A DNA stretch of 64,000 nucleotides from Angustibacter luteus. GTDB taxonomy: Bacteria > Actinomycetota > Actinomycetes > Actinomycetales > Angustibacteraceae. The position numbers and the translations under genes were made by a program. The notes beneath the pieces were generated by a model. That model was not told the DNA's origin and made no database searches. It worked only from the letters and a program-made list of their open reading frames with translations. The stretch lies in NCBI RefSeq assembly GCF_039541115.1, contig NZ_BAABFP010000002.1, positions 1 through 64,000 of the forward strand, written 5' to 3'. Shown here one piece after another: positions 27,355 to 49,544 of the stretch; within the stretch, counting starts at the first letter, position 1; each line of letters starts with the position of its first letter.

Positions 27355-27433
27355 CGGTTCGTGGCCGGTCCTTGGCCCTGGTGTCGCGCCGTCCTGGCGG
27401 GAGAACGACCGGTCATCTGTCCGGTCCCTTTCT

Positions 27434-27461
27434 CCCTCGGCAGGATCGGCCGAGAACTTGA
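27434..27461 (-). promoter_or_regulatory. sigma28-type promoter of flhA-(flhF-like)-csrA
   Basis: TCAA-N16-GCCGAGGG; the leader carries two GGA-loop hairpins (27363-27377, 27387-27399). Confidence 0.55.
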
Positions 27462-27523
27462 GTCCGCCGCCCGGCGTCCCGACGTCGTCCCCGGCCCGTC
27501 GGGTCCGGGCGTGGTCACCGGCG

Positions 27524-28627
27524 TCAGACGGACGACGGCACGCCGGGCCGGACGCCAGCCGGCATCACGTGGGAGCCGGCCGCGGCACCGCGCTTGCGCA
27601 GCCCCATCACGAAGGCGAGCACGTGCGCGACGGCGGAGTACAGGTCGGCCGGGATCTCCTGGCCGATCTCGCAGGCCGCGTGCAGCGCCCGCGCGAGCGG
27701 CACGTCCTGCACGAGCGGGACCCGCTCCTGCGTGGCCCGCTCTCGGATCGCGGCGGCGACGGCGCCGGAGCCCTTCGCCACGACGACCGGCGCCCCGGTG
27801 CCCGGCACGTAGCGCAGCGCCACGGCGACGTGCGTGGGGTTGACCAGCACCACGTCCGCCGACGCCAGGTCGGCCATCATCCGGTTGCGGCTCATGGCGA
27901 ACGCGAGAGCCCGGCGGTGGCCCTTGATGTGCGGGTCCCCCTCGGACTGCTTGTGCTCCTGCTGGATGTCGTGCTTGGACATCTTGATCTGCTTGTTGAT
28001 GTGCCGGCGCTTGACCATGTAGTCGCCGATGGCCATCACGAGCCCGACGAGCACGGCGGCTCGAACCAGGTTCAGCACCCCGGAGGCCGTGACACCCAGC
28101 GTGCTCGCCAAGGGCGCGTTCACCGCGCCGGTGAGCTTCGGGGTGATCGCGGCGACGACGCCCCAGAGCACCGCGGCCAGCAGCGCCGTCTTGATCAGGA
28201 TCTTGCCGGCCTCCCACCACGTCATCACCCCGACGAGGCGCTTGACGCCCTGCACCAGGTTGAGCGGCTTGAAGCTCGGCTTCAGCTTCTTGGTCGCCGG
28301 GTGGATACCGCCCTGGGCCGCCGCGGCGGCGATGCCGATCACCATGATCCCGGCGACCAGCGGCAGCATGGCCATCGCCGCACCGGAGAGCCCCTTGCCG
28401 AGCAGCGCGAGCGCACGGTCCGGATCGGGGTCGACGATGGCGGCGCTCACACCCATCATCAGGGCCACCAGCACGTCCATCACGGACTGCGCGGCGCGCG
28501 GCACCAGGAAGGTCGCAGCGAGCATCGCCAGCCACGCCCCCAGGTCCGGGGTCCGCGCGACCTGCCCCTCCTTGCGCGCCTCCTTGAGCCGCTTGGCGGT
28601 GGGCTTCTCGGTCTTCTCGCCGCTCAC
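27524..28627 (-). CDS. flhB: Flagellar export protein FlhB
   Basis: EKTEKPTAKRLKEARKEGQV, NPTH autocleavage motif. Confidence 0.97.
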   Translation of the reverse strand: MSGEKTEKPTAKRLKEARKEGQVARTPDLGAWLAMLAATFLVPRAAQSVMDVLVALMMGVSAAIVDPDPDRALALLGKGLSGAAMAMLPLVAGIMVIGIAAAAAQGGIHPATKKLKPSFKPLNLVQGVKRLVGVMTWWEAGKILIKTALLAAVLWGVVAAITPKLTGAVNAPLASTLGVTASGVLNLVRAAVLVGLVMAIGDYMVKRRHINKQIKMSKHDIQQEHKQSEGDPHIKGHRRALAFAMSRNRMMADLASADVVLVNPTHVAVALRYVPGTGAPVVVAKGSGAVAAAIRERATQERVPLVQDVPLARALHAACEIGQEIPADLYSAVAHVLAFVMGLRKRGAAAGSHVMPAGVRPGVPSSV

Positions 28628-29388
28628 AGCCCCACCACCTTGAGCATCGTCGCGCCCGCGGTGCCGGCCAACCCGTCGACCACACCGGGCAGGGCGACGA
28701 GCACCGAGCCCACCAGGACCAGGGTCAGCATGATCTTGAACGGGAACCCGAGCGAGAACGCGTTGAGGGACGGCGCGATCCGGGTCAGCAGCCCGAGCGC
28801 GACGTCGGCCAGGAACAGCACGGCCAGCACGGGCGCGGCGATCTGCAGCGCGGCGAGCATCATCTGCCCGATCCCGCCGGCCAGCACGTCGGAGAACGTG
28901 GCGAGGTTCAGCCCCGCGTCCAACGGGATCGCCCGATAGCTGCGGAAGAAGCCCTGCAGCACGATCAGGTACGCGCCGGAGGCCATCAGCAGCGTGGTCG
29001 ACAGCAGCTGGAAGAACTTGCCGAACACGGCGTTCCCCTGCTGCATCAACGGGTCGAAGGCGAACGACAGCGAGAACCCGCCGAACACGTCGAGCAGGTC
29101 ACCGGCCGCCTGCACGGCGGTGAAGATGAGCAGGCACAGGAAGCCGAGTGCGGCCCCGGTGACCAGCTGCAGCACCATCGCGGAGATCACGGCAGCGGTT
29201 TCGGCGGGTGGCGGTTTCAGGTCGCCGGCCGCCACCACGGGAAGCGCGATCACCACGGACAACAGGGCCTTGACGGTGCGCGGGATCGCCTTGTTGGAGA
29301 ACGGCGGGGCGATCGCCAGCCACGCCGCCGCGCGCATGGCGGCCAGCATGACCGTCAGCAGCAGGTCGGCGGGCAGGTCGATCGGCAC
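28624..29388 (-). CDS. fliR: Flagellar export protein FliR
   Basis: AGDLLDVFGGF, LLTRIAPSLNAFSLGFPFK. Confidence 0.95.
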   Translation of the reverse strand: MPIDLPADLLLTVMLAAMRAAAWLAIAPPFSNKAIPRTVKALLSVVIALPVVAAGDLKPPPAETAAVISAMVLQLVTGAALGFLCLLIFTAVQAAGDLLDVFGGFSLSFAFDPLMQQGNAVFGKFFQLLSTTLLMASGAYLIVLQGFFRSYRAIPLDAGLNLATFSDVLAGGIGQMMLAALQIAAPVLAVLFLADVALGLLTRIAPSLNAFSLGFPFKIMLTLVLVGSVLVALPGVVDGLAGTAGATMLKVVGL

Positions 29389-29391
29389 GGC

Positions 29392-29667
29392 TCAGCCGTT
29401 CAACAGGATCGCGGGGATGCGTTCGTAGAGCTGGGTGGTGAAGCTGACGAGCTCGTGCAGCATCCAGTTGCCGCAGATCACGATGACCAGGGCGATGCCG
29501 ATGGCCTTGGGGACGAAGCTGAGCGTGGCTTCCTGGATCTGGGTGACCGACTGGAACAGGGACACCCCGAACCCGATGGCCAGCGCCGTGAGCAGGATCG
29601 GCGCACACAGCTTGGCGGAGAGCAGCATCGCCTGCAGGCCGAGCTCGATGACGGTCTGGTCCTTCAC
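29392..29667 (-). CDS. fliQ: Flagellar export protein FliQ
   Basis: SLFQSVTQIQEATLSFVPK. Confidence 0.96.
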   Translation of the reverse strand: MKDQTVIELGLQAMLLSAKLCAPILLTALAIGFGVSLFQSVTQIQEATLSFVPKAIGIALVIVICGNWMLHELVSFTTQLYERIPAILLNG

Positions 29668-29680
29668 GCGGCGGCCCCCC

Positions 29681-30562
29681 TCACCGGTAGCTCGCGACGA
29701 GGGCGTGCACGATCAGTCCCCAACCGTCCACCAGGACGAAGAGCAGGAGCTTGAACGGCAGCGACACGGTCACCGGCGGCAGCATCATCATGCCGAGCGA
29801 CATCAGCGCAGCGGAGACGACCAGGTCGATGACCAGGAACGGGATGAAGACCAGGAAGCCGATCAGGAACGCCGACCGGAGCTCGGACAGCGCGAACGCC
29901 GGCACCAGGGTGGACAGCGGCACGGACGCCGCGTTCTTCGGCTTCGGCTGGTTCGCGGCACTGGTGATCAGCGCCAGCTCCTCGGGCCGGGTCTTGGACA
30001 CCATGAACTTCTTGAGCGGCTTGCTGCCGGCGTCGAACGCCTGGCTCGCCGTCATGTCGCCCTTCAGGTACGGCTGGATGCCGTCCTGGTTCACCGCAGT
30101 GAACACGGGTGCCATCACGAACATCGTGAGGAACAGCGCGAGCCCGGCCAGCACCTGGTTCGGCGGCGTCGTCTGCAGCCCGAGGGCGTTCCGGGTGATG
30201 CTGAGCACCACGAAGATCTTGGTGAAGCTCGTGGTGAGCAGCAGCAGGGCCGGGGCCACCGAGAGTGCGGTGACGGCCAGGATGATGACGATCGAGCTGG
30301 ACGGCTTCTGGCCGTCCGAACCCGTGCCACCGATCTGGATGCTGACTCCCCCGGACGCCGGGTCGGTCGGCTTCGTGGGGGCCTTCGGGTCGGCCATGAA
30401 CGCGGCCGGCGCCGCAGAGACCGTCGTCGAGACCGCGGCAGACACGGAAGCGGGGGCGGCGGCCGGGACGTCGGCCGAGGCCGGTCCGGCGAGCGCGAGA
30501 CCGAGCGCGGACAGCAGCCCGACCAGCAGCGTCGCAGCGAGCAGCCGGCCACTCGAGATCAC
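29681..30562 (-). CDS. fliP: Flagellar export protein FliP
   Basis: TSFTKIFVVL, TPPNQVL, PAFALSEL, MGMMMLPP-like LGMMMLPP, LPFKLLLFVLVDGW. Confidence 0.96.
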   Translation of the reverse strand: MISSGRLLAATLLVGLLSALGLALAGPASADVPAAAPASVSAAVSTTVSAAPAAFMADPKAPTKPTDPASGGVSIQIGGTGSDGQKPSSSIVIILAVTALSVAPALLLLTTSFTKIFVVLSITRNALGLQTTPPNQVLAGLALFLTMFVMAPVFTAVNQDGIQPYLKGDMTASQAFDAGSKPLKKFMVSKTRPEELALITSAANQPKPKNAASVPLSTLVPAFALSELRSAFLIGFLVFIPFLVIDLVVSAALMSLGMMMLPPVTVSLPFKLLLFVLVDGWGLIVHALVASYR

Positions 30563-31029
30563 TTGCGCACCGTCATCTCACGCACGGCGTCGAGGGCCTT
30601 GGACCAGGTGGCCGGCGAGAGAGCCGACCCTGCGAGCGGCCCCGTCGCGGGCTGGGAGACCTTCCGCTGCGGGGGCACGGCGACCGTGGCGTCGTTCCCG
30701 ACGACCGGCGCGGGCGTCACCTCGGTGGGGAGGTCCGCGCCGTCCTCGCTCTCCGCGATCGCGTCAGCGAGCATCAGGGACGCGACAGGATGGTCGGCGA
30801 GCAGCTCGACCCGGCTCTCGGTGACGCCGAGCACGAGCGCCCGGTCGCCGACCTTCACGACGGCCACGGACGCGCTGCGCGCGAGCGGCTGGCGAGCCAG
30901 GACGTCGACGTCCACCCCGCGTGAGGTACGGCGCTGGTTCTTGCGCATGGTCCGCGCAGCGAGCCAGAGCAGCACCAGCACCACGGCCAGGGACAGGATG
31001 ACCCGTCCGGCCAGGGCGAGGAAATCCAT
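30559..31029 (-). CDS. fliO: Flagellar protein FliO
   Basis: N-terminal TM helix, then VLARQPL...VAVVKVGDRALVLGVT; lies between fliN and fliP. Confidence 0.88.
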   Translation of the reverse strand: MDFLALAGRVILSLAVVLVLLWLAARTMRKNQRRTSRGVDVDVLARQPLARSASVAVVKVGDRALVLGVTESRVELLADHPVASLMLADAIAESEDGADLPTEVTPAPVVGNDATVAVPPQRKVSQPATGPLAGSALSPATWSKALDAVREMTVRK

Positions 31030-31757
31030 CAGGCGTGGTCCGGCAGGGAGCTGGAGATGAGTTCGGTGATCTTCAACGCGTAGTCCTCGTCGACGACGAC
31101 CACCTCGCCGCGAGCGATGAGCCGTCCGTTCACCAGCAGGTCGGCGGGGCTGCCGGCGAGCCGGTCCAGCTCGACGACGGCGCCGGGCTGCAGGTTCAGC
31201 AGCTCGCGCACGGTCATCGTGGTGCGGCCGAGCTCGGCGCTGAGCTCCATGACGACGTCCTGCAGGAGCTCCATGCCCGCACTGGGGCCGGCCGGGCGCG
31301 CGGCGGGGGCCGCTGCGCTGGACGGGGCGGCAGAGACGGCGATCCAGGCGGCCGGCCCCGTCGTGCCCTGCAGCGGGATGATCGTGGCGTCCTGAGCCTG
31401 CAGCAGCGTGATCGCGCCGGCCGCGGTGGTCTCCGCGACGGTGGCGAGGGTGCCGACACCGAGGGCGACCCGCAGGGCCTCGAGGGCGGGCCGCAGCGCG
31501 TCCACCAGCGGCAGCGGTCCCATGGGCGAGTCGGCGAGCGACGCTGCCAGCTCGCGCTGGACGATCACCACGACCGAGCCGACGCGGGCGCCGAGCACGT
31601 CGGCGTGGGCGGCGACGGCGTCCGGCGGGATGGACGACGCCGCCTCGTCGAGGCTCATGACCTGCCCGGCGGACAACGGCGCGCTCGTCGGCAAGAGGTC
31701 CGCCACGGCCTGCGCGGTGGCGAGGACGTCCTGCTCGAGGTGGGTGATCGTGGTCAT
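31029..31757 (-). CDS. fliN: C-ring protein FliN with an N-terminal extension
   Basis: LLQDVVMELSAELGRT...GAVVELDRLAGSPADLLVNGRLIARGEVVVVD. Confidence 0.92.
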   Translation of the reverse strand: MTTITHLEQDVLATAQAVADLLPTSAPLSAGQVMSLDEAASSIPPDAVAAHADVLGARVGSVVVIVQRELAASLADSPMGPLPLVDALRPALEALRVALGVGTLATVAETTAAGAITLLQAQDATIIPLQGTTGPAAWIAVSAAPSSAAAPAARPAGPSAGMELLQDVVMELSAELGRTTMTVRELLNLQPGAVVELDRLAGSPADLLVNGRLIARGEVVVVDEDYALKITELISSSLPDHA

Positions 31758-32731
31758 TCGCTGGCCCTTCTGGACAGAACAGAGTTGGCGAGGGACGCGG
31801 CAGCCGAGGAGCTGATCGCGGAGTCGGTGATGGCGGAGTCGGTGATCAGGCAGGCGGCGCGCGGGCCCTGGGCGCCGGCGACGCCGCGGGCGAAGACGAT
31901 GCCGGCGGACACCAGGTCCAGCGGGCGGTCGACCGGGTGGCCGAGCTTGACGAGGTCACCCTCGCGCAGCTCGAGCAGGCGGGCGGTGGGGGTGGCGCGG
32001 GGCACGAACCGGACCGAGACGTCGACCGGAACGTCCTCGACGAGCTGGGTCATCGTCGCGCGGGCGACGGCCTTCGCCTGCCGGGCGCCGGGGTCGTCCG
32101 CCCCGCTGCCGTCGCCGCTGCGCATGACCAGCGTGGCCGCGGGCAGCGCGACGCTGGCCGGCGCGGAGGCCTCACCGATCGTGATGATGAAGGTCGCCAC
32201 GATGTAGAGGTCCGTGGCGGCCGCGACCTGCACGAACTGCGGGTTGAACTCGAGCGACTTGAAGACCGGGTCGACGTCGGTCACCGCGGCCAGCCCGTAG
32301 CGCAGCTCGCCGAGCATCCGCTCGATGACCCGGAGCAGCAGCTGGGTCTCGATCTCGGTGGGGATGCGGTCGGGCTGCTCGCCACCGGTGCCGCCGAGCA
32401 TGCGCTCGATGGCCTCGAAGCCGAGGTGTGGCGCGACCTGCAGGAACGCGGCGCCGCCGTGCGGGTCCGGCGCGAAGACGGCCAGCAGGTTCGGCGAGGG
32501 CAGCTCGCTGACGTAGTCGTCGTAGCTGCGCTGCTCGACGCCGCTGAACGCCACCTGGCACGCCGCGCCCAGCTCGGAGCCGAGCACCGTCGCCCACTGG
32601 CGGGCCACGGTCTCGTACACCATCTCCAGCAGCCGACCCTGCTCGCGGGCGAGCTTGGTCGGTCGACGGAAGTCGTACGGCTGCGGTTCAGCGCGGCCAG
32701 CAGTCACGTCGACGCTGTCGTTCGAGGGCAT
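31754..32731 (-). CDS. fliM: C-ring protein FliM
   Basis: YDFRRPTKL, IERMLGG, TEIE, EFNPQFVQ; lacks the N-terminal LSQxEIDALL CheY-binding peptide. Confidence 0.9.
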   Translation of the reverse strand: MPSNDSVDVTAGRAEPQPYDFRRPTKLAREQGRLLEMVYETVARQWATVLGSELGAACQVAFSGVEQRSYDDYVSELPSPNLLAVFAPDPHGGAAFLQVAPHLGFEAIERMLGGTGGEQPDRIPTEIETQLLLRVIERMLGELRYGLAAVTDVDPVFKSLEFNPQFVQVAAATDLYIVATFIITIGEASAPASVALPAATLVMRSGDGSGADDPGARQAKAVARATMTQLVEDVPVDVSVRFVPRATPTARLLELREGDLVKLGHPVDRPLDLVSAGIVFARGVAGAQGPRAACLITDSAITDSAISSSAAASLANSVLSRRASE

Positions 32732-32738
32732 GTGCCAT

Positions 32739-32765
32739 GTATCGGCAAGCAGCCGTCGACCTTTA
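32739..32765 (-). promoter_or_regulatory. sigma28-type promoter of the fliM operon (probably leaderless)
   Basis: TAAA-N15-GCCGATAC, near-perfect consensus, 7 nt before the ATG. Confidence 0.85.
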
Positions 32766-32822
32766 CGCCGAATGGGGCATCTTCTGCCCGTGATCTTGAG
32801 TTACCGGGTCATCCTCGGCGGG

Positions 32823-33305
32823 CTACTGCATCACCAGCGTCGTCGGGTACAGGTCGATGACGTCCTCGCCGTACGCCTTCTCCACGGCCTCGGTCAGCTC
32901 CTTGACCGCCTTGCGGCGCGCGGCGGGCTGGGACAGCACCGTCATCGACTCGCCGCTGAACTGGTCGATCGCGATCGCCAGGGCCCGGCTGGGGTCCGGG
33001 TCCTCCTTCACGCCCTTGGCGAGCTGCAGCGAGAACGACAGCTTCAGGTAGTGCCCGCCCTCGAGGTTGATGTTGATCGGGTCCACCGGGAGCACGGTCC
33101 CCAGCTCGGGCTTCTTGGCCTCGGCCTTGCCGTCGCCACCGCGCAGCAGGAAGAACCAGGCGGCTCCGGCGGCGGCGAGCACCAGCACGACCAGGATCAG
33201 CAGCTTCTTCTTCGACTTCTTCTTGGCCGGCTCCTCCGCCGGCGCGGCGCCAGCGGGGGCAGACGTGCGCATGGTGCTCACGACGCGCTCCTCGGTCTTG
33301 TTCAT
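32823..33305 (-). CDS. fliL: Flagellar basal-body protein FliL
   Basis: KKKSKKKL + TM helix, ININLEGGHYLKL, C-terminal LVMQ. Confidence 0.9.
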   Translation of the reverse strand: MNKTEERVVSTMRTSAPAGAAPAEEPAKKKSKKKLLILVVLVLAAAGAAWFFLLRGGDGKAEAKKPELGTVLPVDPININLEGGHYLKLSFSLQLAKGVKEDPDPSRALAIAIDQFSGESMTVLSQPAARRKAVKELTEAVEKAYGEDVIDLYPTTLVMQ

Positions 33306-33313
33306 CTGATGTC

Positions 33314-34240
33314 CTACATGTCGGAGAGCTGGGGGGCGAGCTTGGGAAGCAGCGCGCGGACCTCAGGGCTCTGGTTGCTGACGAGCACGATGTCGACGCG
33401 CCGGTTGAACGCGATGGAGCGGGGGTCGGAGGCGGGGAACATCGGCCGGGAGGACCCGTAGCCGGTCGCGGACAGCTGGGTGGCGCGGAACTGCCCGTTG
33501 CTGATCAGCCAGCGCACGACGCCGGCTGCGCGCGCCCCGGACAGCTCCCAGTTGGTCGGGTAGACGGAGCTGGTCAGCTTCAGCCGGTTCGCGTGGCCTT
33601 CGACGGCGATGTCGTTCGGCACGTTCCGGATGGCCGGGGACACTGCCTGCAGGACCGTGATGCCCCGCGGGCGCAGGGTGGCGCTGGCGCTCTCGAAGAA
33701 GACGTCGTCCGAGACCATCGCGACGACCAGGCCCCGCTCGGTCACCTTGAAGCGGACGTCGTTCTGCAGGCCCTTGGCCTTCAGGGCCTCCCGGATCTTC
33801 TTCTCGATGCCGTCGAGGCGCTGGACCTCCTTGATCGCGTTGGCCTGGGTGACCTGCTCCTGGGACTGGGCGGTCGGACCCTTGCTGGCGTCCTTGCCGT
33901 CACTGGAGTCCTTGTAGGCCTTCTGGTCCTCGCCGGAGTGCCCGCTGGAGACGGTGCCCAGGCCGACGTCCATGTTCATCGGCTCGGGGACCACGCCGTC
34001 CTGCTGCTGGATGCCGCTGCCACCGGAGATCGGGATGTTCGTGGTGGCCCCGAAGCCGGAGCTCAGCCCTTCCTTCAGCGCGGCGAACTTGTGCTGGTCG
34101 ACCTGGCTGATCGCGAACATCACGATGAACAGCACCATGAGCAGCGTCATCATGTCCGCGTAGGAGACGAGCCACCGCTCGTGGTTCTCGTGCTCCTCCT
34201 CGTGGGCGCCACCGCGTCGACCGCCCCCGCGGGCAGACAT
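33314..34240 (-). CDS. motB: Flagellar stator MotB
   Basis: ERWLVSYADMMTLLMVLFIVMFA (conserved Asp); OmpA-like NWELSGARA, NRRVDI. Confidence 0.95.
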   Translation of the reverse strand: MSARGGGRRGGAHEEEHENHERWLVSYADMMTLLMVLFIVMFAISQVDQHKFAALKEGLSSGFGATTNIPISGGSGIQQQDGVVPEPMNMDVGLGTVSSGHSGEDQKAYKDSSDGKDASKGPTAQSQEQVTQANAIKEVQRLDGIEKKIREALKAKGLQNDVRFKVTERGLVVAMVSDDVFFESASATLRPRGITVLQAVSPAIRNVPNDIAVEGHANRLKLTSSVYPTNWELSGARAAGVVRWLISNGQFRATQLSATGYGSSRPMFPASDPRSIAFNRRVDIVLVSNQSPEVRALLPKLAPQLSDM

Positions 34241-35007
34241 CAGGCCGCTTCCTTCTGCGCGGGTGCCGGCGGCAGGAAGCTCTGCAGCTTCTCCTGGACG
34301 ACCCGCGGGCTGGTGCCGGACTGGATGGCCAGCACGCCCTCGACGGCGACCTCCATCTGGTGGCAGGCGCTCTCGGACAGCCGCTTGAGCCGGCTGGCGA
34401 TGGGCAGCCACAGGATGTTGGCGCTGAGCACGCCCCAGAGGGTCGCGACGAAGGCGCCGGCGATCAGGTGGCCGAGCTCAGCGGGCTCGCTGAGGTTCTC
34501 CAGCACGTGCACCAGGCCGATGACGGTGCCGATGATGCCGATGGTCGGTGCGTAGCCGCCCATGTCGGCGTAGAACTTCGCGGCGCGCTTGTCCTCGGCG
34601 CGCTTGGTGTCGATCTGCGCGTAGAGGATGTCGCGCAGCTCCTCGGGGTCGGCGCCGTCGATCGCGGACTGCAGGCCCTGGCGCAGGAACGCGTCCTCGA
34701 TGTCCTGGACGGCGGACTCCAGCGCCAGCAGGCCCTCGCGGCGCGCGCTCTCGGCGAGCCGGACCACGGTGGCGACGGTCTCGTCGGCACTGGTCGGCGC
34801 ACCCATGAAGGCGTCCTTCAGAGCGGCCGCGGACTTCTTGGCGTCACTGAGCAGGCCACCGGCCAGTCCCGCGCCGATGGTGCCGACGAACACGAGCAGC
34901 AGCGGCGGCAGCAGGAAGATCGCCATCGGGTTGCCGCCCTCGAGGATCATCGAGGCGAAGATGGCCACGAAGGCCAGCACGATGCCAATGATCGTCGCGG
35001 GATCCAT
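34240..35007 (-). CDS. motA: Flagellar stator MotA
   Basis: ARREGLLALE, GYAPTIGIIGTVIGL, AFVATLWG. Confidence 0.96.
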   Translation of the reverse strand: MDPATIIGIVLAFVAIFASMILEGGNPMAIFLLPPLLLVFVGTIGAGLAGGLLSDAKKSAAALKDAFMGAPTSADETVATVVRLAESARREGLLALESAVQDIEDAFLRQGLQSAIDGADPEELRDILYAQIDTKRAEDKRAAKFYADMGGYAPTIGIIGTVIGLVHVLENLSEPAELGHLIAGAFVATLWGVLSANILWLPIASRLKRLSESACHQMEVAVEGVLAIQSGTSPRVVQEKLQSFLPPAPAQKEAA

Positions 35008-35282
35008 CAGTGGCTCCGCAGGGGCCGCAGCGGCACGGCAGTGGCGATGTACTCCTCGACGGGCTCGGGCTCCTCGGCGATGACAGCCAAGTGCTGGGCG
35101 AGCGCCACGACGGACGCTCGGTGGGTCAGGACGCGCTCGCTGAGCACCTCGATGGGCTCGACGACGACGTACTTCGTGCCGTCGACGAGCGTCACGACGG
35201 TGTCAGGCGTCGCTTCGGCCTTCTGGATCAGGTCGGGATTCAGTACGAATCCGGGCCCGTTCAGGCGGGTGAGGTGAATCAC
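35007..35282 (-). CDS. flbD: FlbD (SwrD-like) flagellar protein
   Basis: (M)IHLTRLNG...LNPDLIQKAEATPDTVVTLVDGTKYVVVE; GTG start downstream of the sigma28 promoter. Confidence 0.9.
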   Translation of the reverse strand: MIHLTRLNGPGFVLNPDLIQKAEATPDTVVTLVDGTKYVVVEPIEVLSERVLTHRASVVALAQHLAVIAEEPEPVEEYIATAVPLRPLRSH

Positions 35283-35335
35283 GGGGTCCGTCCCTGGGGT
35301 GCTGCGGCCACCCGTCCATGAGTGGCTCATCCCCC

Positions 35336-35362
35336 CCATCGGCCGACGTCCCGCGGTCCTGA
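35336..35362 (-). promoter_or_regulatory. sigma28-type promoter of flbD-motAB-fliL
   Basis: TCAG-N15-GCCGATGG; GGA-loop hairpin at 35307-35326 in the leader. Confidence 0.78.
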
Positions 35363-35396
35363 GTGCTTCGTCGCCGAAGTGCTCGACAGACGACAA

Positions 35397-35453
35397 CGGG
35401 GCGAACGTGCATGATCACCGCGGAGTGGGTGGTGATCATGCACGTTCGCCCCG
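35397..35453. repeat. Palindromic REP/MITE-like element, copy 2
   Basis: CGGGGCGAACGTGCATGATCACC...GGTGATCATGCACGTTCGCCCCG, just after the flgE stop. Confidence 0.8.
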
Positions 35454-35471
35454 GGCCGGGCTGGTTCAGGG

Positions 35472-36650
35472 TCAGCGCTTGATGTTGACCAGGTCCTGCA
35501 GGATCTCGTCGCCGGCGGTGATGATGCGCGAGTTCGCCTGGAAGCCGCGCTGGGCGACGATCAGGTTGGTGAACTCGGCGGCCAGGTCGACGTTGGACAT
35601 CTCCAGGGCGCCCACGGCCAGCGCGCCGCGCGAGCCGCTGCCCGGCGTACCGAGCTGCACCAGACCGGAGTTGCTCGATGCCAGGTAACCGGACGCCCCA
35701 CCCTTGATCAGGCCGTTCGGGTTCGCGAAGGTCGCCATGGCCAGCTGGCCGAGGGCCTTGGTCTGGCCGTTGCTGAACGTGCCGGTGACGACGCCGTCGG
35801 CGCCGAACATGAAGCCCTGCAGGGTGCCGGCCTCGGCGCCGTCCGCCTTCGCGACGGCCAGGGTGCTCAGGCCCGAGTAGCCGGTCAGGTTCGACAGGTC
35901 GACGGCCACGCCGCCCACCGTCATGGACGCCGGGTTCGGGGCGCTGCCGTCGGCCGCGAAGGTCAGCGTGCCGGTGGAGGTCGCGGTTCCGTCGGTCATC
36001 GTGATGTCCCACGTGGTGGCGGAGGTGCGGGTGAAGGTGGCGTTCAGCGAGCGCGCCTTGCCCTGCGCGTCGTAGACGTCGACGGACGTCTGCGGCGACG
36101 TGGTCAGCGAACCGTCCGCCGGCAGGTTGCCACTGAGCTGCACCGTGGAGGTGGCCTGCGGCTGGATCGTCGAGGCGATCGGGATGGACAGGTCGGTGAC
36201 GGCGCCGTTGACGTTGATGTTGCCGTTGGTGTCGGCCATCCAGCCCTGCAGGATGCCGCCGTCCGGGCCGACGAGGCGGCCGTTGGCGTCGAAGCCGAGC
36301 GCGCCGTTGCGGGTGTACACGTTCTGTCCGTTGAGCCGCTCCACGAAGAAGCCGTCGCCCTGGATCATCAGGTCGGCGCCGCGGCCGGTGCTCTGCGCCG
36401 CGCCCGGGTTGAAGTTGGTGGTGATCGCCGCCACGCGGACGCCCAGGCCGATCTGGGACGGGTTGGTGCCACCGCGGCCGGCGCTCGGCGCGCTGGCGCC
36501 CTGGACGAGCTGGCTCAGGGTGTCCTGGAAGACCGTGTTGGAGGCCTTGAAGCCGGTGGTGTTCACGTTCGCGATGTTGTTGCCGACGACGTCCATCATC
36601 GTCTGGTTGGCGCGCAGGCCGCTGATGCCGGAGTACAGGGAGCGAAGCAT
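35472..36650 (-). CDS. flgE: Flagellar hook protein
   Basis: GNNIANVNTTGFK, YTRNG, LEMSNVDLAAEFTNLIVAQRGFQANSR. Confidence 0.95.
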   Translation of the reverse strand: MLRSLYSGISGLRANQTMMDVVGNNIANVNTTGFKASNTVFQDTLSQLVQGASAPSAGRGGTNPSQIGLGVRVAAITTNFNPGAAQSTGRGADLMIQGDGFFVERLNGQNVYTRNGALGFDANGRLVGPDGGILQGWMADTNGNINVNGAVTDLSIPIASTIQPQATSTVQLSGNLPADGSLTTSPQTSVDVYDAQGKARSLNATFTRTSATTWDITMTDGTATSTGTLTFAADGSAPNPASMTVGGVAVDLSNLTGYSGLSTLAVAKADGAEAGTLQGFMFGADGVVTGTFSNGQTKALGQLAMATFANPNGLIKGGASGYLASSNSGLVQLGTPGSGSRGALAVGALEMSNVDLAAEFTNLIVAQRGFQANSRIITAGDEILQDLVNIKR

Positions 36651-36779
36651 TCGTCTTCTCCTCTAAGGGGCGGGACGTCGGTCCCGCTGGGGCTCATGGG
36701 TTCTGGCGCATCCGTGCGCCCGACCTTCGCTTCCGTGCAGTGGTCTGGGGTGGGGCCGGCTGGCCCCGCGGTCTCGCCG

Positions 36780-37226: not shown

Positions 37227-37240
37227 GTCAGGGCTCCTGT

Positions 37241-37306
37241 CGGGTCGGGCTGGGGTTCGGGTCGGGCTGGGGTTCGGGTCGGGCTGAGGTTCGCCGTGCT
37301 GGGGTT
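37241..37306. repeat. 17-bp tandem repeat (3 copies plus a degenerate one) between fliK and flgD
   Basis: CGGGTCGGGCTG[G/A]GGTT x3. Confidence 0.85.
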
Positions 37307-37310
37307 GCCG

Positions 37311-43148: not shown

Positions 43149-43150
43149 GG

Positions 43151-44743
43151 TCAGCCCCTACGGTCCGCGAGCCAGCCGCGCAGCAGCTCGGCGACCTCGT
43201 CGGGCTGGCGCTCCACCAGGGCGAGGACGTCGTCCTTGCGGCGCTGCGGGATCGCCGGGGCCGGCGAGTCGCCGTCGCCGGCGGGCAGGGCGAGCCGGTC
43301 GGCAGCCTCGAGCGCCTGGCGCTGGGCGGGGATGCCTACCTGGGACTCGACGAGGTCCAGCTGCACGAGCTCGTCGATCGTCTGGCCCTTCTTCTTCTTA
43401 CGGGACAGCCAGACCACCAGCAGCAGGACGAGGATGCCGAGGACGATCGCCGCCTGCTTGGCCCAGCCGACCAGCTGCGCCCGCTGCTGGGCCTGCTCGG
43501 CCTTCTTCAGCTCGGCGGCCGCGGTCTTGGTGGCGGTCTGGTCGAACGGCATGCTCGTCACGTTCAGCGCGTCGCCGCGGGTCGGGTCGATGCCGGCGGC
43601 GGTGCTGACCGCGGTCTGCAGCTTGGTCAGGTCGACGCCCTTGACCTTGTCGTCGACCACGACCGAGACGGACTGGCGGACCACGGCCCCGGGGGCGGCC
43701 TTCTTGTGCTCGGTGACCTTGGACTGCGCGTTGTTCGTGGTGGTCGTGGACTTCTCGTAGTTCCCCGAGCCGGAGCCCGAGCTCGGCACCGCGAGGTTGT
43801 CGGTGCCCAGCACGCCGCTCGCGGTCCCGCTGCCACCGGCGTACTTCTCGGTGGTCGTCGACGTCGCCAGCGGCTTGGCGTCCTTGTCGGTGTAGACCCG
43901 CTCGGTGGTGGTGTCGATCGCGTCGAACTGCAGCGTCGCGTTGACCTGCGCCACGGCGTGGCCGGGGCCGACGATCTTGTCCAGCACGCCCTGCAGCTCG
44001 GCGGCCTGGCGGGTCTCGTAGTCCTGCGTCAGCTGGTCGTTGCTGGCGCCACCGGCGCCCGTGGCGCCGTCAGAACCCTTGGTGGACAGCAGGTTCCCCT
44101 TGCCGTCGACCACGGTGACGTCGTCCGCGCTCATGCCCTCGATGCTCGAGGCGACGAGGTGCACGATGCTCTGCACCTGCTGGTTGCTCAGCTCGGAGCC
44201 GGGCTTCATGGCGACCAGGACGGAGGCGGTGGGCTTGCTCTCGGAGTCCAGGAAGACGTCCTTGGCCGGGATGGCCAGGTGCACGACCGAGCTGCTCACC
44301 CCGTCGATGGCCTGGACCGTCTTGGCCAGCTCGCCCTCCAGGGCGCGCTGGTAGGTGACCTGCTGCTGGAACTGCGAGGCGGTCACGCCCTGCTTGTCCA
44401 GCAACGAGTACCCGCCCTCGGACGACGAGGGCAGGCCCTGGCCGGAGAGCTTGACGCGCTCGGCGTAGACGACGTCCTTCGGCACGAGCACCGTGCTGCC
44501 ACCGTCGGTCAGCTGGTACTTCACGCCGTCGGCGTCCAGCTTGTCGACGATGGCGCTGGCGTCCTCGCCGGCCAGGCTGCCGAACAGCGGCGCGTACGTC
44601 GGGGCGCTGGCCCACTTGAAGAACGCGAACCCGCCGAGCAGCAGCCCGACGACCAGCAGTCCGCCGATGACGCGCTGGGCGGCGCTGAAGCCGCCGAGCT
44701 GGGTCTGCACCCGACGGAGGGTGACCTGCATCGCCTGCGGCAT
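43151..44743 (-). CDS. fliF: MS-ring protein FliF
   Basis: YAPLFGSL, GYSLLD, YQRALEGELAKT, VHLAIP, PTASV, two TM helices. Confidence 0.96.
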   Translation of the reverse strand: MPQAMQVTLRRVQTQLGGFSAAQRVIGGLLVVGLLLGGFAFFKWASAPTYAPLFGSLAGEDASAIVDKLDADGVKYQLTDGGSTVLVPKDVVYAERVKLSGQGLPSSSEGGYSLLDKQGVTASQFQQQVTYQRALEGELAKTVQAIDGVSSSVVHLAIPAKDVFLDSESKPTASVLVAMKPGSELSNQQVQSIVHLVASSIEGMSADDVTVVDGKGNLLSTKGSDGATGAGGASNDQLTQDYETRQAAELQGVLDKIVGPGHAVAQVNATLQFDAIDTTTERVYTDKDAKPLATSTTTEKYAGGSGTASGVLGTDNLAVPSSGSGSGNYEKSTTTTNNAQSKVTEHKKAAPGAVVRQSVSVVVDDKVKGVDLTKLQTAVSTAAGIDPTRGDALNVTSMPFDQTATKTAAAELKKAEQAQQRAQLVGWAKQAAIVLGILVLLLVVWLSRKKKKGQTIDELVQLDLVESQVGIPAQRQALEAADRLALPAGDGDSPAPAIPQRRKDDVLALVERQPDEVAELLRGWLADRRG

Positions 44744-45075
44744 CAGCCCTGCATCCTCATGATCTCGTTGAACGCGTCGAGCGCCTTGTTCCGCAAGGTG
44801 ACGGTGAGCTCGGTGGTCAGCTCGGCCTTGGTCGCCGCGATCATGTAGTCGTGGACGTCGGTGAGGTCACCGGTCGCAGCCTTGACGCCGAGGTCGTCGG
44901 CCTTGGTCTGCACGTCGGACAGGTTCTGCAGACCGCCCTCGAGGGCCTGGGCGAAGCCGGTGCCCGAGGTGGCCCCGGTGCCGGTCGCGGCACCGGCGGA
45001 CCCGGTCGAGGCGAGCCCGGTGGTGGGGACCGAGGCGGACGACGCCAGTGCGGCGCCGATGGCGGCGATGCTCAT
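44743..45075 (-). CDS. fliE: Hook-basal body protein FliE
   Basis: [12 protein letters not shown]...[15 protein letters not shown]. Confidence 0.95.
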
Positions 45076-45470
45076 CAGTTCCTCCCGAGCGCGAGCGCGG
45101 CCTGGTAGGCCTCACGGGCGCGGTCGACGACGCTGAGGTTCGCCTGGTAGCCGCGCTGGGCCATGATCAGCTGGCCCATCTGCTGGCCCAGGTCGACGTC
45201 CGGCATCCGCACGTACCCGTCGGCGTCGGCGAGCGGGTGGGTGGGGTCGTAGACCAGCCGGCCCTCGGCGCTGCCCTTGGCGACGCCGGACACCTGCACG
45301 CCCTGGCCGTCCCCCATCTCGCTGGCGATGATGCTGGTCTGCTGGTACGCCGCCTCGGACGTCGAGGTGACGTTGTTCATGTTGGCGATGTTGTCGCTGA
45401 CCGCGTCGAGCCACTTGCGGTAGACGGCGACGCCGGACTGGGCGATCCCGATGCTGTCGAAGATGGGCAT
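45075..45470 (-). CDS. flgC: Proximal rod protein FlgC
   Basis: [36 protein letters not shown]. Confidence 0.95.
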
Positions 45471-45829
45471 CAGGCGCTCCGCATCGACGTCTTGAGGATG
45501 CTGAAGTCGTGGTCGACCGCGCGCAGCGTGAGCTGGTAGCGCAGGTTCGTGTCGACGCTGGACAGCGTCTCGGTGTCCAGGTTCACGTTGCTGCCGTTGA
45601 GCCGGGTGGGCTCGAGCGACTTCTGGGAGGTCGGGCCGACCGAGGTCACGGAGCCCGAGGCGATGCTGCCGTCGTCCACGGCGCTGCGCAGGCTGTCCTC
45701 GAAGCTGACCCGGGTCGCGTGGTACCCCGGCGTCTCGACGTTCGCGATGTTGTCAGCGATGGCTCGCTGTCGAGCGGCCAGACCGGTCAGCGCGCTGCCC
45801 AGGGCAACACTGGTCACATCGTCGAACAC
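45470..45829 (-). CDS. flgB: Proximal rod protein FlgB
   Basis: RQRAIADNIANVETPGY, VSFEDSL, NGSNVNLDTE. Confidence 0.95.
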   Translation of the reverse strand: MFDDVTSVALGSALTGLAARQRAIADNIANVETPGYHATRVSFEDSLRSAVDDGSIASGSVTSVGPTSQKSLEPTRLNGSNVNLDTETLSSVDTNLRYQLTLRAVDHDFSILKTSMRSA

Positions 45830-45909
45830 GGATCGCACCACCAAGGTGAGTCGTCTTGCAGGTGACGGCCGATCCGTGGCCGAGGTTGAGCGATCCTTGC
45901 TCCCTCATG

Positions 45910-45936
45910 TTCTCGTCAGAGGGGGGTGGGACTTGA
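45910..45936 (-). promoter_or_regulatory. sigma28-type promoter of the flgB...flgE operon
   Basis: TCAA-N15-GACGAGAA; two GGA-loop hairpins in the leader (45888-45902, 45867-45881). Confidence 0.65.
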
Positions 45937-46038
45937 GCGCTGGGCCGCAACGATTTTCAACGGTTCGTCGCGGTGTTCACCCGAACGCCCTAGTCGTTCA
46001 CCCGTTCGCCGCCCCGTATGGAGTAACGGGGCGCTCAG

Positions 46039-46386
46039 TCAGTACGTAGCGTCGACGTACAGGGGCCGACTGGGTGCCTGGTCGAAGCGCATCCGGCGTG
46101 AGACCTCGTGGTGCTGGCGCGAGCTGGTGGCCGCTCGGGCGAGGTCCTCGATGACCCGGAGCTGGCGCTCCAGCACGATCCGGGCCCGCTCCTGCAACGA
46201 CTCTGGCAGCGGCGCGATGCCGGTCGGCGGGGCCCAGGACCCCAGCATCGTGGGCAGCTCGTCCTGGTCGCCGCGACGCACGGCCGCCAGGACCGCCTCG
46301 GCCGCGTCGACGTCCTCCTCGAGGTCGGTCAGCGTGGCAACCCACACGGCGCGCCAGTCCTGCTCGGCGTCGTGGGTGAGGGTCAT
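46039..46386 (-). CDS. Hypothetical protein after fliS (possibly FliT-like)
   Basis: ATGA overlap with fliS; helical, W...L..LE...WAPP..IAPLP...ERAR, ends LYVDATY. Confidence 0.65.
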   Translation of the reverse strand: MTLTHDAEQDWRAVWVATLTDLEEDVDAAEAVLAAVRRGDQDELPTMLGSWAPPTGIAPLPESLQERARIVLERQLRVIEDLARAATSSRQHHEVSRRMRFDQAPSRPLYVDATY

Positions 46387-46820
46387 GCCGAGGCGCCGAG
46401 CAGCGGGGTGCCGGCGGTCGGCGAGGCGGCCATGGTCATCGCCTCGGTCCAGGCCTGGCGCAACGGCTCGACGACGGTGATGCAACCGGCGGTGCGGGTG
46501 GCGTCCATCCGCGTGTTGGCCGCGATCAGCTCGCGGATGAGCCACCGGTAGAGGCTGGCCAGGTTGTGGCCGCCCTCCCAGGCGTCGACGTCCAGGCTGG
46601 TGAGCAGCTCGGCGATGATGTCCTGCGCGTGCGCGATGTTGTCGTTCGCGACCTCGCGGTCGCCGTCCAGCTGCGCCTGGTGCGCGCGGGTGAGGTCGAG
46701 GGAGAGCCGGTCGTAGAGCATGACCAGCAGGCGGGCCGGCGACGCGGTGGCGGTGGTGTCGGAGCCGTAGCGTCCGGCCGCGCGCTGGTACGCCTGGTTC
46801 TGCGCCATCGGGAAGGTCAT
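46383..46820 (-). CDS. fliS: Flagellin chaperone FliS
   Basis: TASPARLLVMLYD, AQDIIAEL, NLASLY, LRQAW. Confidence 0.95.
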   Translation of the reverse strand: MTFPMAQNQAYQRAAGRYGSDTTATASPARLLVMLYDRLSLDLTRAHQAQLDGDREVANDNIAHAQDIIAELLTSLDVDAWEGGHNLASLYRWLIRELIAANTRMDATRTAGCITVVEPLRQAWTEAMTMAASPTAGTPLLGASA

Positions 46821-48199
46821 GAGTTGCTCCCGCTGTTGCTGAGCTGGTTGATCTGACCGGCCAGCCAGGTGGACTGGCTCTTGAGCTTGCCCAGCGCGAC
46901 CTCGAGCGCCGAGTACTGCTTCTGCAGGCTCGACTGCCGGGCCGCCAGGGTGACGTCCCAGCCGGCGATGCGATCCGTGAGGTCCGAGATCGTGGACTGC
47001 CGGCCCGTGACCGCCGACGCGATGGTGCCGGAGCTGCTGGAGGCGTCCTTCGCCAGACCGGCGACCACGTCCGCGAAACCGGTGCCGGCAGTGGTCGACG
47101 TGGTGAACATGGACTGCGTGCCAGCCGGATCGGCCGTCATCGCTGCGGCGAACTTGTCCTTGTCGAAGGTGACGATGCCGTCCTTGTTGACGCCGATGCC
47201 GGCCGTCGAGAGGGACTTGCCTCCGACGCCCGCGGTCACCTTCGACAGGATCTGGCTGGTCAGCTGGCGCATCAGTCCGTCACCGGCGAGCGCTCCGACC
47301 CCCGATCGCGTCCCATCCGTGCCGACGACACCGTTCGAGCTGACCGACTTGATCCCGACGAGCGCCGAGTTCGCGGCGTCCACCAGGGCCTGGACGGCCG
47401 AGGTGATCGCCGCCTGGTCGGGGTCGACGGACAGGGTCACGTCGTTGGCCTTGGCGCTCACCTTGACGGTGACCCCGGGCATGACGCCCTCGACGGTGTT
47501 GCTGGCCGAGGTGATGTCGAAGCCGGCACCGACGTCACCGACGTGCAGCTTGGCGTCCTGCGCGGCGTTGACCTGGGTGAACGACAGGCCCCCGAGGGCT
47601 GCGCCGCCGGTGCCGGTCAGCGTGAAGGCGTTCTTCTCACCGGTGTCGGTGGCGCTGAGCTGCAGCCGGTACTGGCCGGGTGAGACCTGGACCGCGGCGG
47701 CGCGCACGCCGGCATCGCTGGTCGAGTTGATCGCGGTGACCAGGGCCTGCAGGGAGCCGTCGGTCGGCGTCGCGATGGTGATCGTCTTGGCGTCGGCACC
47801 GGAGCCGCGGTGGATCTCGAAGCCGCTGTCGGTGATCGCACTCGTGCTGGTCAGCGACGAGAAGGTGGCCGAGCTGACCGAGGACTGCGCGGTGGCGAGC
47901 TGGACGACGGAGAAGGTCGTGGAGCCGGACAGGGCGCCGGCCGCGGCCGTCGCCGTCACGGCGGACGAGCTGGAGCTGGCCCTCGCGGCGCCCCAGGTGG
48001 TCAGCTTCTGCAGGTTCTCGGCGGCGGCCTGCAGGTTCGTCATCTTGGTGTTGACGGACTGCAGGGCGCTCAGCGCGGACTGCTGCTGGGTGAGCGAGGT
48101 CTTCAGGCGGGTCTGCGGTGCCGCCTGGATCTGCATCAGCTGGCTGATGATCGTGGTGGTGTCCAGTCCACTGACCAGACCGTCGACGGTCGTCGCCAC
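46817..48199 (-). CDS. fliD: Filament cap protein FliD
   Basis: VDGLVSGLDTTTIISQLM, VVQLATAQ, QYSALEVALGKLKSQSTWL; GGAGGAG RBS before the GTG. Confidence 0.94.
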   Translation of the reverse strand: MATTVDGLVSGLDTTTIISQLMQIQAAPQTRLKTSLTQQQSALSALQSVNTKMTNLQAAAENLQKLTTWGAARASSSSSAVTATAAAGALSGSTTFSVVQLATAQSSVSSATFSSLTSTSAITDSGFEIHRGSGADAKTITIATPTDGSLQALVTAINSTSDAGVRAAAVQVSPGQYRLQLSATDTGEKNAFTLTGTGGAALGGLSFTQVNAAQDAKLHVGDVGAGFDITSASNTVEGVMPGVTVKVSAKANDVTLSVDPDQAAITSAVQALVDAANSALVGIKSVSSNGVVGTDGTRSGVGALAGDGLMRQLTSQILSKVTAGVGGKSLSTAGIGVNKDGIVTFDKDKFAAAMTADPAGTQSMFTTSTTAGTGFADVVAGLAKDASSSSGTIASAVTGRQSTISDLTDRIAGWDVTLAARQSSLQKQYSALEVALGKLKSQSTWLAGQINQLSNSGSNS

Positions 48200-48225
48200 G
48201 AGATCTCCTCCGCTGATGGATGGAA

Positions 48226-48266
48226 GCGATCGGTGGGCGGGGCAGGGCGCCCCGCCCACCGATCGC
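48226..48266 (-). terminator. Hairpin between fliC and fliD
   Basis: GCGATCGGTGGGCGGGGC-5 nt-GCCCCGCCCACCGATCGC, perfect 18-bp stem. Confidence 0.75.
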
Positions 48267-48331
48267 GACTGTGGTGCTGGTACTGCTGGTTACTGCTGGT
48301 TACTGCTGGGTCGTGCTAGGTGCTACCGGGC

Positions 48332-49450
48332 TCAGCCGAGCAGCTTCAGGACGGACTGCTGCGAGGAGTTCGCCTGGGCGAGCATCGACGTACCGGCCTG
48401 CTGCAGGATCTGCGCGCGGGTGAAGCTGGTCATCTCCGCAGCCATGTCGGTGTCGCGGATCTGGCTCTCGGACGCGGACAGGTTCTCCACCGCGACGTTG
48501 AGGTTGTTCACGGTGTGCTCGAAGCGGTTCTGCAGCGCACCGAGGTTGCCACGAGCCGAGGAGACCGACTTGATGGCGGTGTCGATCTTGGTGATCGCAG
48601 CGGTCGCACCGGTCTGCGAGGCCAGGTCGACCGAGCTCACGCCGAGGTCGGTCGAGCTGAAGCCCGCGTTGGCGCCCGGAGCGGCGTTGGTGCCCGCAGC
48701 CGTCAGGGTGCCGGTGACGGCGATGGCGCCGGCGAGGCCGTCCTTGGAGGACACGACCAGGCCACCGTTGGTGTCCACCGAGGCCGAGTAGCTACCAGCG
48801 AAGCCGGCGTCGGCGTTCAGCTGGGTGGCGATGGCGTTGGCGTCGGTGCTGGCGGTCACCGCGACGGTCGTCGCGACGGCGCCGTGGGTGAAGACCGCGT
48901 TACCCGCCGTGGTAGCGGCCGAACCGTTGGCCCACGAGGACTTGGCGCCACCGGTGCCGGTCGAGGAGATCGCCACGCCGATGGTGTCGTTCGCCGCGTA
49001 GCCGACCTGGAAGGACTTGCCGGTGAAGGAGCCGTCCAGCAGGTTCACGTTGTTGAACGTGGTCTTGCTGGCGATCCGGTCCAGCTCCGAGTTGAGCTGC
49101 TTGGCCTCGGCGTCGATGGCGCTGCGCGAGTTGGTGTCGTTGCTGCCGTTCGCCGACTGCACCGCGAGGTCACGCATGCGCTGCAGGATGGCGGTGGACT
49201 CGTTCAGGGCGCCGTCAGCCGTCTGCACGACGTTGATGCCGTCCTGAGCGTTGCGGACGGCGACCTTCAGGCCACCGATCTGCGAGCGCAGGCCCTCGGA
49301 GATCGAGAGGCCGGCAGCGTCGTCCGCCGCGCGGTTGATGCGGAAGCCGCTGGAGAGCTTCTCCAGGGACTTGCTCATCTGGTTGTCGGTGACCGACAGG
49401 TTGCGGTACGAGTTCTGCGCCGCGATGTTCTGGTTGATGCGAAGACCCAT
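48332..49450 (-). CDS. fliC: Flagellin
   Basis: [56 protein letters not shown]. Confidence 0.98.
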
Positions 49451-49507
49451 GATGAAACTCCTCCGTGATGGGGTCCGAGTGCCCTTCCGTGGGCTGTGTC
49501 AACCGCT

Positions 49508-49534: not shown

Positions 49535-49544
49535 GGGTTTTTGG

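Follow-up and report, generated by a model that had tools for sequence, protein, structure and literature searches.

Conserved GGA-loop hairpins in actinobacterial flagellar leaders and a predicted two-way Hag-FliW-CsrA switch

Known CsrA systems and the flagellar cluster of the window

The Hag-FliW-CsrA partner switch is established in Bacillus subtilis, with hag as the described target (PMC7652899). Here we analyzed a 64,000-nt stretch of Angustibacter luteus DNA (positions 1 to 64,000 of contig NZ_BAABFP010000002.1; hereafter the window; 72% GC), which contained a complete actinomycete flagellar cluster with gene names checked against Pfam; its FlgE shared 84% identity with an Angustibacter FlgE. 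Among the genes of the cluster are csrA, fliW, the flagellin gene, and one for a sigma factor of the FliA/WhiG family, and the leaders of several of its operons contain hairpins with an A(N)GGA loop. As in the B. subtilis switch, the same three proteins were present, CsrA had a C-terminal extension, and the flagellin leader combined a hairpin with a site at the Shine-Dalgarno sequence. Unlike the B. subtilis switch as described, three more operons carried sites, FlgM was absent, and CsrA was predicted to activate the rod operon headed by flgB.

In Campylobacter jejuni (PMC4894983), as here, a FliW-type CsrA is associated with many flagellar leaders, ANGGA hairpins of flagellin covary, and no CsrB-type RNA is present. 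Unlike here, C. jejuni has FlgM and a sigma cascade, its described targets are repressed and mostly of class 2-3, and the available text of that study describes no start-codon or terminator switch at flgB. The first-pass annotation of this DNA had proposed CsrA gating of the cluster as an under-described system; CsrA action on many flagellar mRNAs is already on record from C. jejuni, whereas a flgB switch of opposite sign was not found in the literature searched. In Escherichia coli, CsrA activates ymdA by unfolding its leader structure (PMC7492729). Like the leaders studied here, those of ymdA and flhDC have two CsrA sites, through which an inhibitory structure is removed in ymdA and the 5' end is protected in flhDC. 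They differ in that CsrA is under CsrB/C control and structural rod genes are not among the targets; in the leaders studied here, the inhibitory helix is predicted to be built from the CsrA-type sites, with flagellin export via FliW as the proposed input. Borrelia burgdorferi likewise has post-transcriptional flagellar control without FlgM, through FlaB-FliW-CsrA-FliS (PMC12327847), but FliA is absent there too and the control is described for flagellin only.

According to a 2026 report, nearly all flagellar clusters of actinobacteria lack FlgM, and late assembly may be under the control of an "as-yet unidentified mechanism" (PMC13595943); the available text of that report makes no mention of CsrA. 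That the cluster lacks flgM, as the first-pass annotation had stated, held genome-wide: FlgM was not found in the own genome, which is 100% complete by markers, nor in any of 27 sampled Actinomycetes (0/27). It was found in 19 of the 48 flagellated genomes of other actinobacterial classes, a distribution in agreement with PMC10746217. The leaders described below provide a candidate for the FlgM substitute that PMC13595943 calls unidentified. No published account of them was found in searches on CsrA with actinobacterial flagella, flgB, antitermination, and Actinoplanes, which covered mostly titles and abstracts of open literature; within the same literature, CsrA acting as an antiterminator at intrinsic terminators was not found.

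Conservation of GGA-loop hairpins in flagellar leaders

The seven hairpin sequences listed by the first-pass annotation each occurred once, on the minus (mRNA) strand, where it had placed them; all features below are on the minus strand unless noted. In the leader of fliC (flagellin; 48332..49450; PF00669, PF00700), a hairpin with an ANGGA hexaloop (49481..49494) was accompanied by a second ANGGA site (49458..49467) overlapping the Shine-Dalgarno sequence, the latter also as annotated. The same layout preceded flbD (35007..35282; PF06289), whose stop overlaps the motA start: a hexaloop hairpin (35307..35326) and an ANGGA site over the Shine-Dalgarno sequence (35287..35297), which had previously gone unmentioned. 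Two GGA-loop hairpins (45888..45902 and 45867..45881) were located upstream of flgB (45470..45829; PF00460), the first gene of the rod/basal-body operon, whose stop overlaps the flgC start. The leader of the export-gate gene flhA (25291..27354; PF00771) contained two hairpins in a flgB-like layout (27363..27399, comprising 27387-27399 and 27363-27377); judging from orthologue starts, its true start may be the GUG at 27336. Two further hairpins were found in the flgD-flgE spacer (36705..36739, comprising 36705-36720 and the previously unmentioned 36728-36739), before the hook gene flgE (35472..36650; Pfam).

Promoter-like sequences matching the WhiG consensus taken from PMC13595943 were predicted before fliC (49508..49535), the flgB operon (45910..45937; weak here, 5.9 bits), flbD-motA-motB-fliL (35336..35363; 18.9 bits), flhA (27434..27462), and the flgN operon (50558..50585, plus strand), and not before flgE. 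The flgB site was found at the same upstream spacing in 68/92 orthologues. The flgN leader contained no GGA hairpin and served as an internal control. The FliA/WhiG-family sigma factor (49545..50528) had TIGR02479 as its best match, with 179.6 bits, slightly below the cut-off.

Among the 3,737 called genes of the own genome, leaders preceded by a gap of >=60 nt were compared post hoc: an A(N)GGA-loop hairpin with a stem of at least 4 bp, no more than 100 nt from the start, was present in 5/10 flagellar and 120/1,941 other leaders, an enrichment in the former. Two such hairpins occurred in 2/10 flagellar leaders and 0/1,941 others. Six control loops (GCA, AGA, CGA, GGT, GGC, and GGG) were found in 0-1 of the 10 flagellar leaders. 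The covariance model of the flgB motif was significant only at flgB in the own genome (flhA, E 0.28).

For comparison with relatives, 80 named loci were used together with clusters from 53 class genomes, out of 59 in which flgB was matched. Four loci labelled outside Actinomycetota and four apparent duplicates were excluded, as were leaders containing N, those <150 nt from the edge of a locus, and those whose start was >60 nt off the expected place. Three loci probably belonging to other classes (L144, L185, and L204) are partly included in the conservation and covariation counts and were dropped from the later flgB start-region analyses, and totals vary slightly; one genome (G031) enters only the csrA and flgB tallies over class genomes. 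The hairpin was conserved in 87/94 flgB, 28/34 fliC, 69/106 flbD, 27/72 flhA, 17/118 flgE, and 2/38 flgN leaders, compared with 2-8% of shuffled leaders of these genes and 0-22% of the leaders of 27 other cluster genes (fliA with only three leaders). Counted by family, it was present in 15/17 for flgB, 10/11 for fliC, and 10/14 for flbD. When only leaders with a sigma28-like promoter were considered, it followed in 63/68 flgB, 24/27 fliC, 67/93 flbD, and 21/29 flhA leaders, and in 1/25 flgN, 0/22 fliM, and 1/11 flgD leaders, although five of these leaders had served as the training set for the promoter matrix, which makes their promoter counts circular. It followed 2/43 of the top non-flagellar promoter matches of the own genome.

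Covariation around the GGA, which the first-pass annotation had named as a check, was present in fliC and flbD. The 103 stems of these two genes, at sites picked by sequence only, had a covariation score of 0.497, compared with 0.159 for shuffled and at most 0.154 for slid stems. When leaders were anchored on ANGGA alone and structure was ignored, the flanks paired at 65-97% over five positions (about 30-40% at control sites). In addition, an ANGGA was found at -24..-3 in 26/27 hairpin-bearing fliC leaders and 66/67 hairpin-bearing flbD leaders, compared with 15/86 for flgB and 3/26 for flhA. AAGGA is common near starts anyway (42-57% at several other genes), so that the joint loss of both sites in flbD, where only 12/37 hairpin-free leaders had the second one, is the better evidence. 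A hairpin combined with a Shine-Dalgarno site is a known design of CsrA repression (PMC7652899), and by analogy the fliC and flbD layout suggests classic repression by CsrA. Since flbD adjoins motA (gap <=10 nt in 105/105), and fliM comes only after a gap with a median of 113 nt and in 22/94 is preceded by a promoter-like site of its own, repression could be confined to the stator block.

Start-codon and terminator layouts at flgB

The flgB leader differed from those of fliC and flbD in layout. Two A(N)GGA sequences were present in 85 of 91 distinct unselected flgB leaders, mostly in 7-nt loops (5-8 nt overall), with a GGA-to-GGA spacing of 19-26 nt in 87/88 and 21-24 nt in 72/88. Its stems were near-invariant in sequence (covariation 0.161 vs 0.103), which would follow from a need to match the coding start as well. 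No Rfam family matched the leaders of the window, and the flgB leader is a candidate phylum-wide cis-regulatory RNA absent from catalogues. In the predicted fold of the full window leader, a GGA site was paired onto the GUG start (start region 45824..45836, GUG at 45829). Depending on the fold ends chosen, the partner was the 5' arm and loop of hairpin 1 or the loop of hairpin 2, and when the leader was cut before the start region, it was predicted to fold into the two hairpins.

This alternative pairing recurred among orthologues. A GGA was paired into -15..+21 with P>0.5 in 79/86 flgB leaders, but in only 1/34 fliC and 8/78 flbD leaders, and in 196/505 swaps that placed the flgB module before other genes' starts (46/129 for GUG-start swaps). 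Of 35 windows, the most site-complementary was at -8..+8 in 50/83 flgB leaders (11.9 expected), compared with 6/33 in fliC and 6/77 in flbD, and the own flgB start outranked the starts of other genes in 12/12 families. The match occurred in one register, with at least 7/9 pairs in 64/83 flgB leaders and in no more than 10/83 for nine slid registers. GUG starts were found in 78/92 flgB but 6/92 flgC genes, and the noncoding positions -2,-1 were YC in 56/75 GUG-start flgB genes vs 80/192 other GUG starts. By eye, the variable loop base changed with codon 3 in seven genomes of one family (f46) and was mismatched in three, and an AUGGA loop accompanied an AUG start in another (f4).

With the sites held single-stranded, the predicted energy needed to open the ribosome footprint of the window leader fell from 19.5 to 9.6 kcal/mol. 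The median relief was 3.8 kcal/mol over 86 flgB orthologues and 0.0 in fliC and flbD, and the own start exceeded the median of other genes' starts in 32/42. Ranking of whole-module duplexes was noisy (own start top in 5/42), and the site-level tests were used instead. The unbound flgB leader was therefore found in silico to hide its ribosome-binding region by means of its CsrA-type sites, the arrangement expected of a ymdA-type target; for flhA this was weak or absent. The flgB layout suggests, on predicted folds, activation by CsrA, and since flgB overlaps or abuts flgC (gap <=10 nt in 84/91), translational coupling could carry the effect downstream.

A second layout was found in other actinobacterial classes: of 47 flgB leaders, 17 had a GGA within the 5' arm of a hairpin with a U tail, and in 12 of these 17 it was the second of two sites. 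Control genes had such an overlap in 2/189 leaders (flgC 0/48, fliF 0/46, motA 0/26, flgE 1/37, and flbD 1/32), and flgB of Actinomycetes in 1/52. Holding the terminator-arm site open cost the predicted fold 3-17 kcal/mol. The layout was present in 15/28 genomes without a FlgM match vs 2/19 with one; in most FlgM-positive genomes of these classes, flgB was apparently inside an operon. These folds suggest that CsrA would activate flgB here too, and it is mainly because both layouts predict activation that we trust this sign.

Proposed mechanism and alternatives

Whole-genome searches found csrA and fliW in 56/56 flagellated Actinomycetes, which refuted the apparent loss of these genes seen in the cluster stretches of several relatives. 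The single csrA of the own genome (23802..24050; PF02599) keeps R44 and a C-terminal helix with N55, which we take to be a residue of the FliW-binding type. The best solved-structure match of its product was an 83-residue CsrA chain (5dmb_D, E 6e-19) of the long, FliW type; R44 and the C-terminal extension have a described role in such proteins (PMC7652899). The antagonist fliW (53401..53817, plus strand; PF02623) is the last gene of flgN-flgK-flgL-fliW. The C-terminal segment of flagellin matching the FliW-bound region keeps two asparagines, either of which may correspond to N255, the asparagine bound by FliW in B. subtilis (PMC12327847). Across the class, csrA was detected in 67/401 genomes, including 58/59 with a flgB match, and is essentially a flagellar gene; it was also found in 47/48 flagellated genomes of other classes, the one miss (G608) being a 150-contig assembly. 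Nine class genomes had csrA without a flgB match (G011, G041, G091, G168, G172, G192, G195, G236, and G341), and may represent fragmented assemblies, divergent flgB, or csrA left over after flagellar loss.

With an A(N)GGA in a short hairpin loop, an intact CsrA, and site spacings in flgB, fliC (median 30), and flbD (median 26) within the 10-63 nt bridging range of the CsrA dimer (optimum above 18; PMC7652899), the hairpins fit CsrA better than any rival tested, and CsrA is very likely their binder. An ANTAR-domain protein, or some other RNA-binding protein, is highly improbable in this role, although ANTAR proteins are the serious rival and show several points of resemblance. They target twin stem-loops whose six-base loops carry A1 and G4 (10.1101/660928), a pattern that ANGGAN fits; like the leaders of the other classes, those controlled by the antiterminators EutV, NasR, and AmiR have a second hairpin overlapping a terminator arm, the classic layout (PMC12591593); and the own genome has four ANTAR domains, as 60/64 motif-bearing genomes have at least one. 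However, G3 and A5 are fixed as well, making the loops GGA-specific beyond the ANTAR consensus, and loop lengths are 5-8 nt, mostly 7 nt in flgB, with fliC and flbD having a single hairpin. None of the four ANTAR genes is inside the flagellar cluster, and four genomes that are 95-100% complete (G404, G524, G635, and G548) have the two-site or terminator leader and csrA with no ANTAR match. Flagella are not mentioned in the available text of the ANTAR preprint (10.1101/660928), nor CsrA or flagella in that of a 2025 antiterminator review (PMC12591593).

The inverted repeats could instead serve a transcription factor as DNA operators immediately after the promoters, the least probable of the explanations considered and one to which we give almost no credence. 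The flgB arms are indeed conserved in sequence, with a spacing near two helical turns, and G-U vs A-C counts of 34:20 (p=0.08; control 28:34) did not distinguish RNA from DNA. An operator would not account for fliC and flbD arms that vary in sequence yet keep pairing, for a fixed part that is a strand-specific, non-palindromic centre, or for a second site that tracks the Shine-Dalgarno sequence and is lost with the hairpin. A sponge RNA of the CsrB/RsmZ type was rejected, as the leaders hold at most two sites, each before a coding gene, and have no Rfam match. A mini-ykkC/guanidine-II riboswitch has twin hairpins with ACGR loops before guanidine-related genes (PMC1950547); it was also rejected, as about 30% of flgB sites have A, G, or U in place of the C, the context is flagellar, and Rfam gave no match.

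We consider it reasonably probable, from sequence and predicted folds, that these leaders form a two-way Hag-FliW-CsrA switch, in which we infer transcription starts, CsrA binding, both signs, the order of events, and the downstream effects. One sigma28-family factor would transcribe early and late flagellar operons alike, without FlgM. While the hook is unfinished, flagellin would stay in the cytoplasm, bind FliW, and free CsrA, as assumed from the Bacillus precedent. In the leaders of fliC and of flbD-motA-motB-fliL, free CsrA could then span the two sites, hairpin and Shine-Dalgarno, and block translation of these genes, and the same dimer would keep the 5' hairpins of flgB folded, preventing their refolding onto the GUG start region. 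The freed flgB start would allow translation of the coupled rod and basal-body genes; in other actinobacterial classes, CsrA binding may prevent formation of the terminator instead. Once flagellin is exported, FliW would capture CsrA, filament and stator synthesis would rise, and new basal-body synthesis would fall. If the flgB sign is right, Hag-FliW-CsrA extends from a flagellin thermostat to a device ordering early and late genes, and CsrA would join the proteins that antiterminate at intrinsic terminators. More tentatively, and with slightly less than even confidence, we propose that across the phylum CsrA acts as a two-way assembly switch in place of FlgM, and that the flgB site pair was rewired from an antiterminator in early-branching classes to a start-codon switch in Actinomycetes. 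On this proposal, flagellin export sensed by FliW would order the whole assembly post-transcriptionally and limit new basal bodies.

The first-pass annotation had proposed uniform gating, which would make CsrA a brake on every part of the cluster, from rod, hook, and export to stator and flagellin genes. Conservation of the hairpins beyond flagellin agrees with the cluster-wide part of that proposal, as do the common loop motif and the repression of several flagellar mRNAs by C. jejuni CsrA (PMC4894983). The uniform sign is unlikely: 71/86 flgB and 23/26 flhA leaders have no site over the ribosome-binding region, where fliC and flbD nearly always have one, the last hairpin of flgB and flhA ends a median 30 nt before the start, and the unbound flgB leader buries its own start. 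Rod genes shut off while the hook is unfinished would also oppose assembly. There is likewise a small chance that the twin hairpins of flgB and flhA bind CsrA only to protect the 5' end from RNase, or as a sponge, and that the start helix is incidental. Starting a median 6-10 nt past the predicted -10 box, the sites lie at the 5' end, precedents are known in E. coli flhDC (PMC7652899) and C. jejuni flaA (PMC4894983), and the own genome contained no CsrB-like small RNA and no intergenic cluster of at least three GGA hairpins. Such roles, which are compatible with the two-way switch as an added effect, leave unexplained the register-specific match to the flgB start, the GUG bias, and the terminator overlap in other classes.

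Several observations weigh against the two-way switch. Other GC-rich starts also absorbed the hairpins, in 39% of the swaps described above. The flgB complementarity is mostly two-sided conservation with few true double changes, about 39% of site-1 cases have a variable loop base that does not pair with the start codon, and codon 2 may be fixed by the protein. The predicted price of freeing both flgB sites is a median 6.6 kcal/mol, and 10.1 kcal/mol for the window; given a measured CsrA-leader Kd of about 50 nM (PMC4894983), CsrA probably has to capture the leader co-transcriptionally for the switch to work. The window GUG is still 60-70% paired in the constrained fold. A third ANGGA lies on the Shine-Dalgarno sequence in the 15/86 flgB leaders counted above, those of family f10 included, and could repress. 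Two FlgM-positive genomes (G404 and G524) have the terminator layout, which is therefore not strictly a FlgM replacement. The start-pairing signal of flhA is weak (15/25 vs 57/150 swaps; 4/25 vs 3.6 expected), and the flbD hairpin is missing in 7/8 f5 genomes and, under the strict test, in 3/3 of f10. Folding z-scores of six leader stretches were -1.8 to +1.1; the hairpins are individually weak, so that conservation rather than stability carries the evidence, and the relatives' genomes are kin, so that counts are not independent, in addition to the circular promoter counts and the G-U vs A-C counts given above. No flagellated genome truly without csrA was found among those searched, leaving no natural control. 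One RNA run, a soil metatranscriptome, contained 5% of the sequence words; at 85% similarity it yielded short contigs of relatives, mostly flagellin, in which start, strand, and level were unreadable, and it was not used.

Other leaders and neighboring genes

The flhA and flgE sites are real and could act with either sign. Hairpins of flhA were found mainly where the gene has its own promoter (21/29). The flgE site was rejected as a general feature, since it occurred in 17/118 leaders of few lineages, several of them chance matches inside flgD; any gating of the hook gene, as first annotated, would thus be lineage-limited. The annotated autoregulation of csrA through an flhA-led transcript would also be local only: csrA is behind flhA in the window but directly behind fliW in 36/56 relatives, where the operon's flgN leader generally contains no hairpin.

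The flgB leaders of f10 genomes (G065, G208, G314, and G368), which are of the zoospore type and may use a different logic, have their third ANGGA in a small hairpin over the Shine-Dalgarno sequence, with low predicted relief. In f5 (e.g., G155, G221, and G305), flbD leaders have lost hairpin and Shine-Dalgarno site in 7/8 and kept the promoter, and several of these genomes have a divergent FliW (E 1e-8 to 1e-18). In the own genome, the highest sigma28-like promoter score belongs to a CheA-like gene (G000:C3, upstream of 3616, minus strand), whose 40-nt leader contains a Shine-Dalgarno GGA and a weak ANGGA hairpin; CsrA may thus also act on chemotaxis, with a target of the fliC type. Outside Actinomycetota, the phylum reached through G769 gave one flgB match in 60 genomes, and a contig labelled Acidobacteria (L210) had an actinomycete-type cluster and flgB leader, by mis-binning or transfer.

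Between flhA and csrA, a 413-aa open reading frame (ORF; 24072-25313, minus strand) matched FlhF over its first 90 residues (TIGR03499, E 2e-7, far under the cut-off), with no GTPase match and weak tblastn matches in some relatives; it is possibly a degenerate FlhF, in a class said to be without FlhF (PMC10746217). Directly downstream of csrA, an EAL-HDOD protein is encoded (22509-23729, minus strand), a possible c-di-GMP link to the cluster. A 115-aa ORF after fliS, in the fliT position (46039-46386, minus strand), had no Pfam or NCBIfam match and weak matches in relatives. Further, short tandem repeats were present in the fliK-flgD spacer (37255-37300, minus strand) and between fliC and fliD (around 48290-48310).

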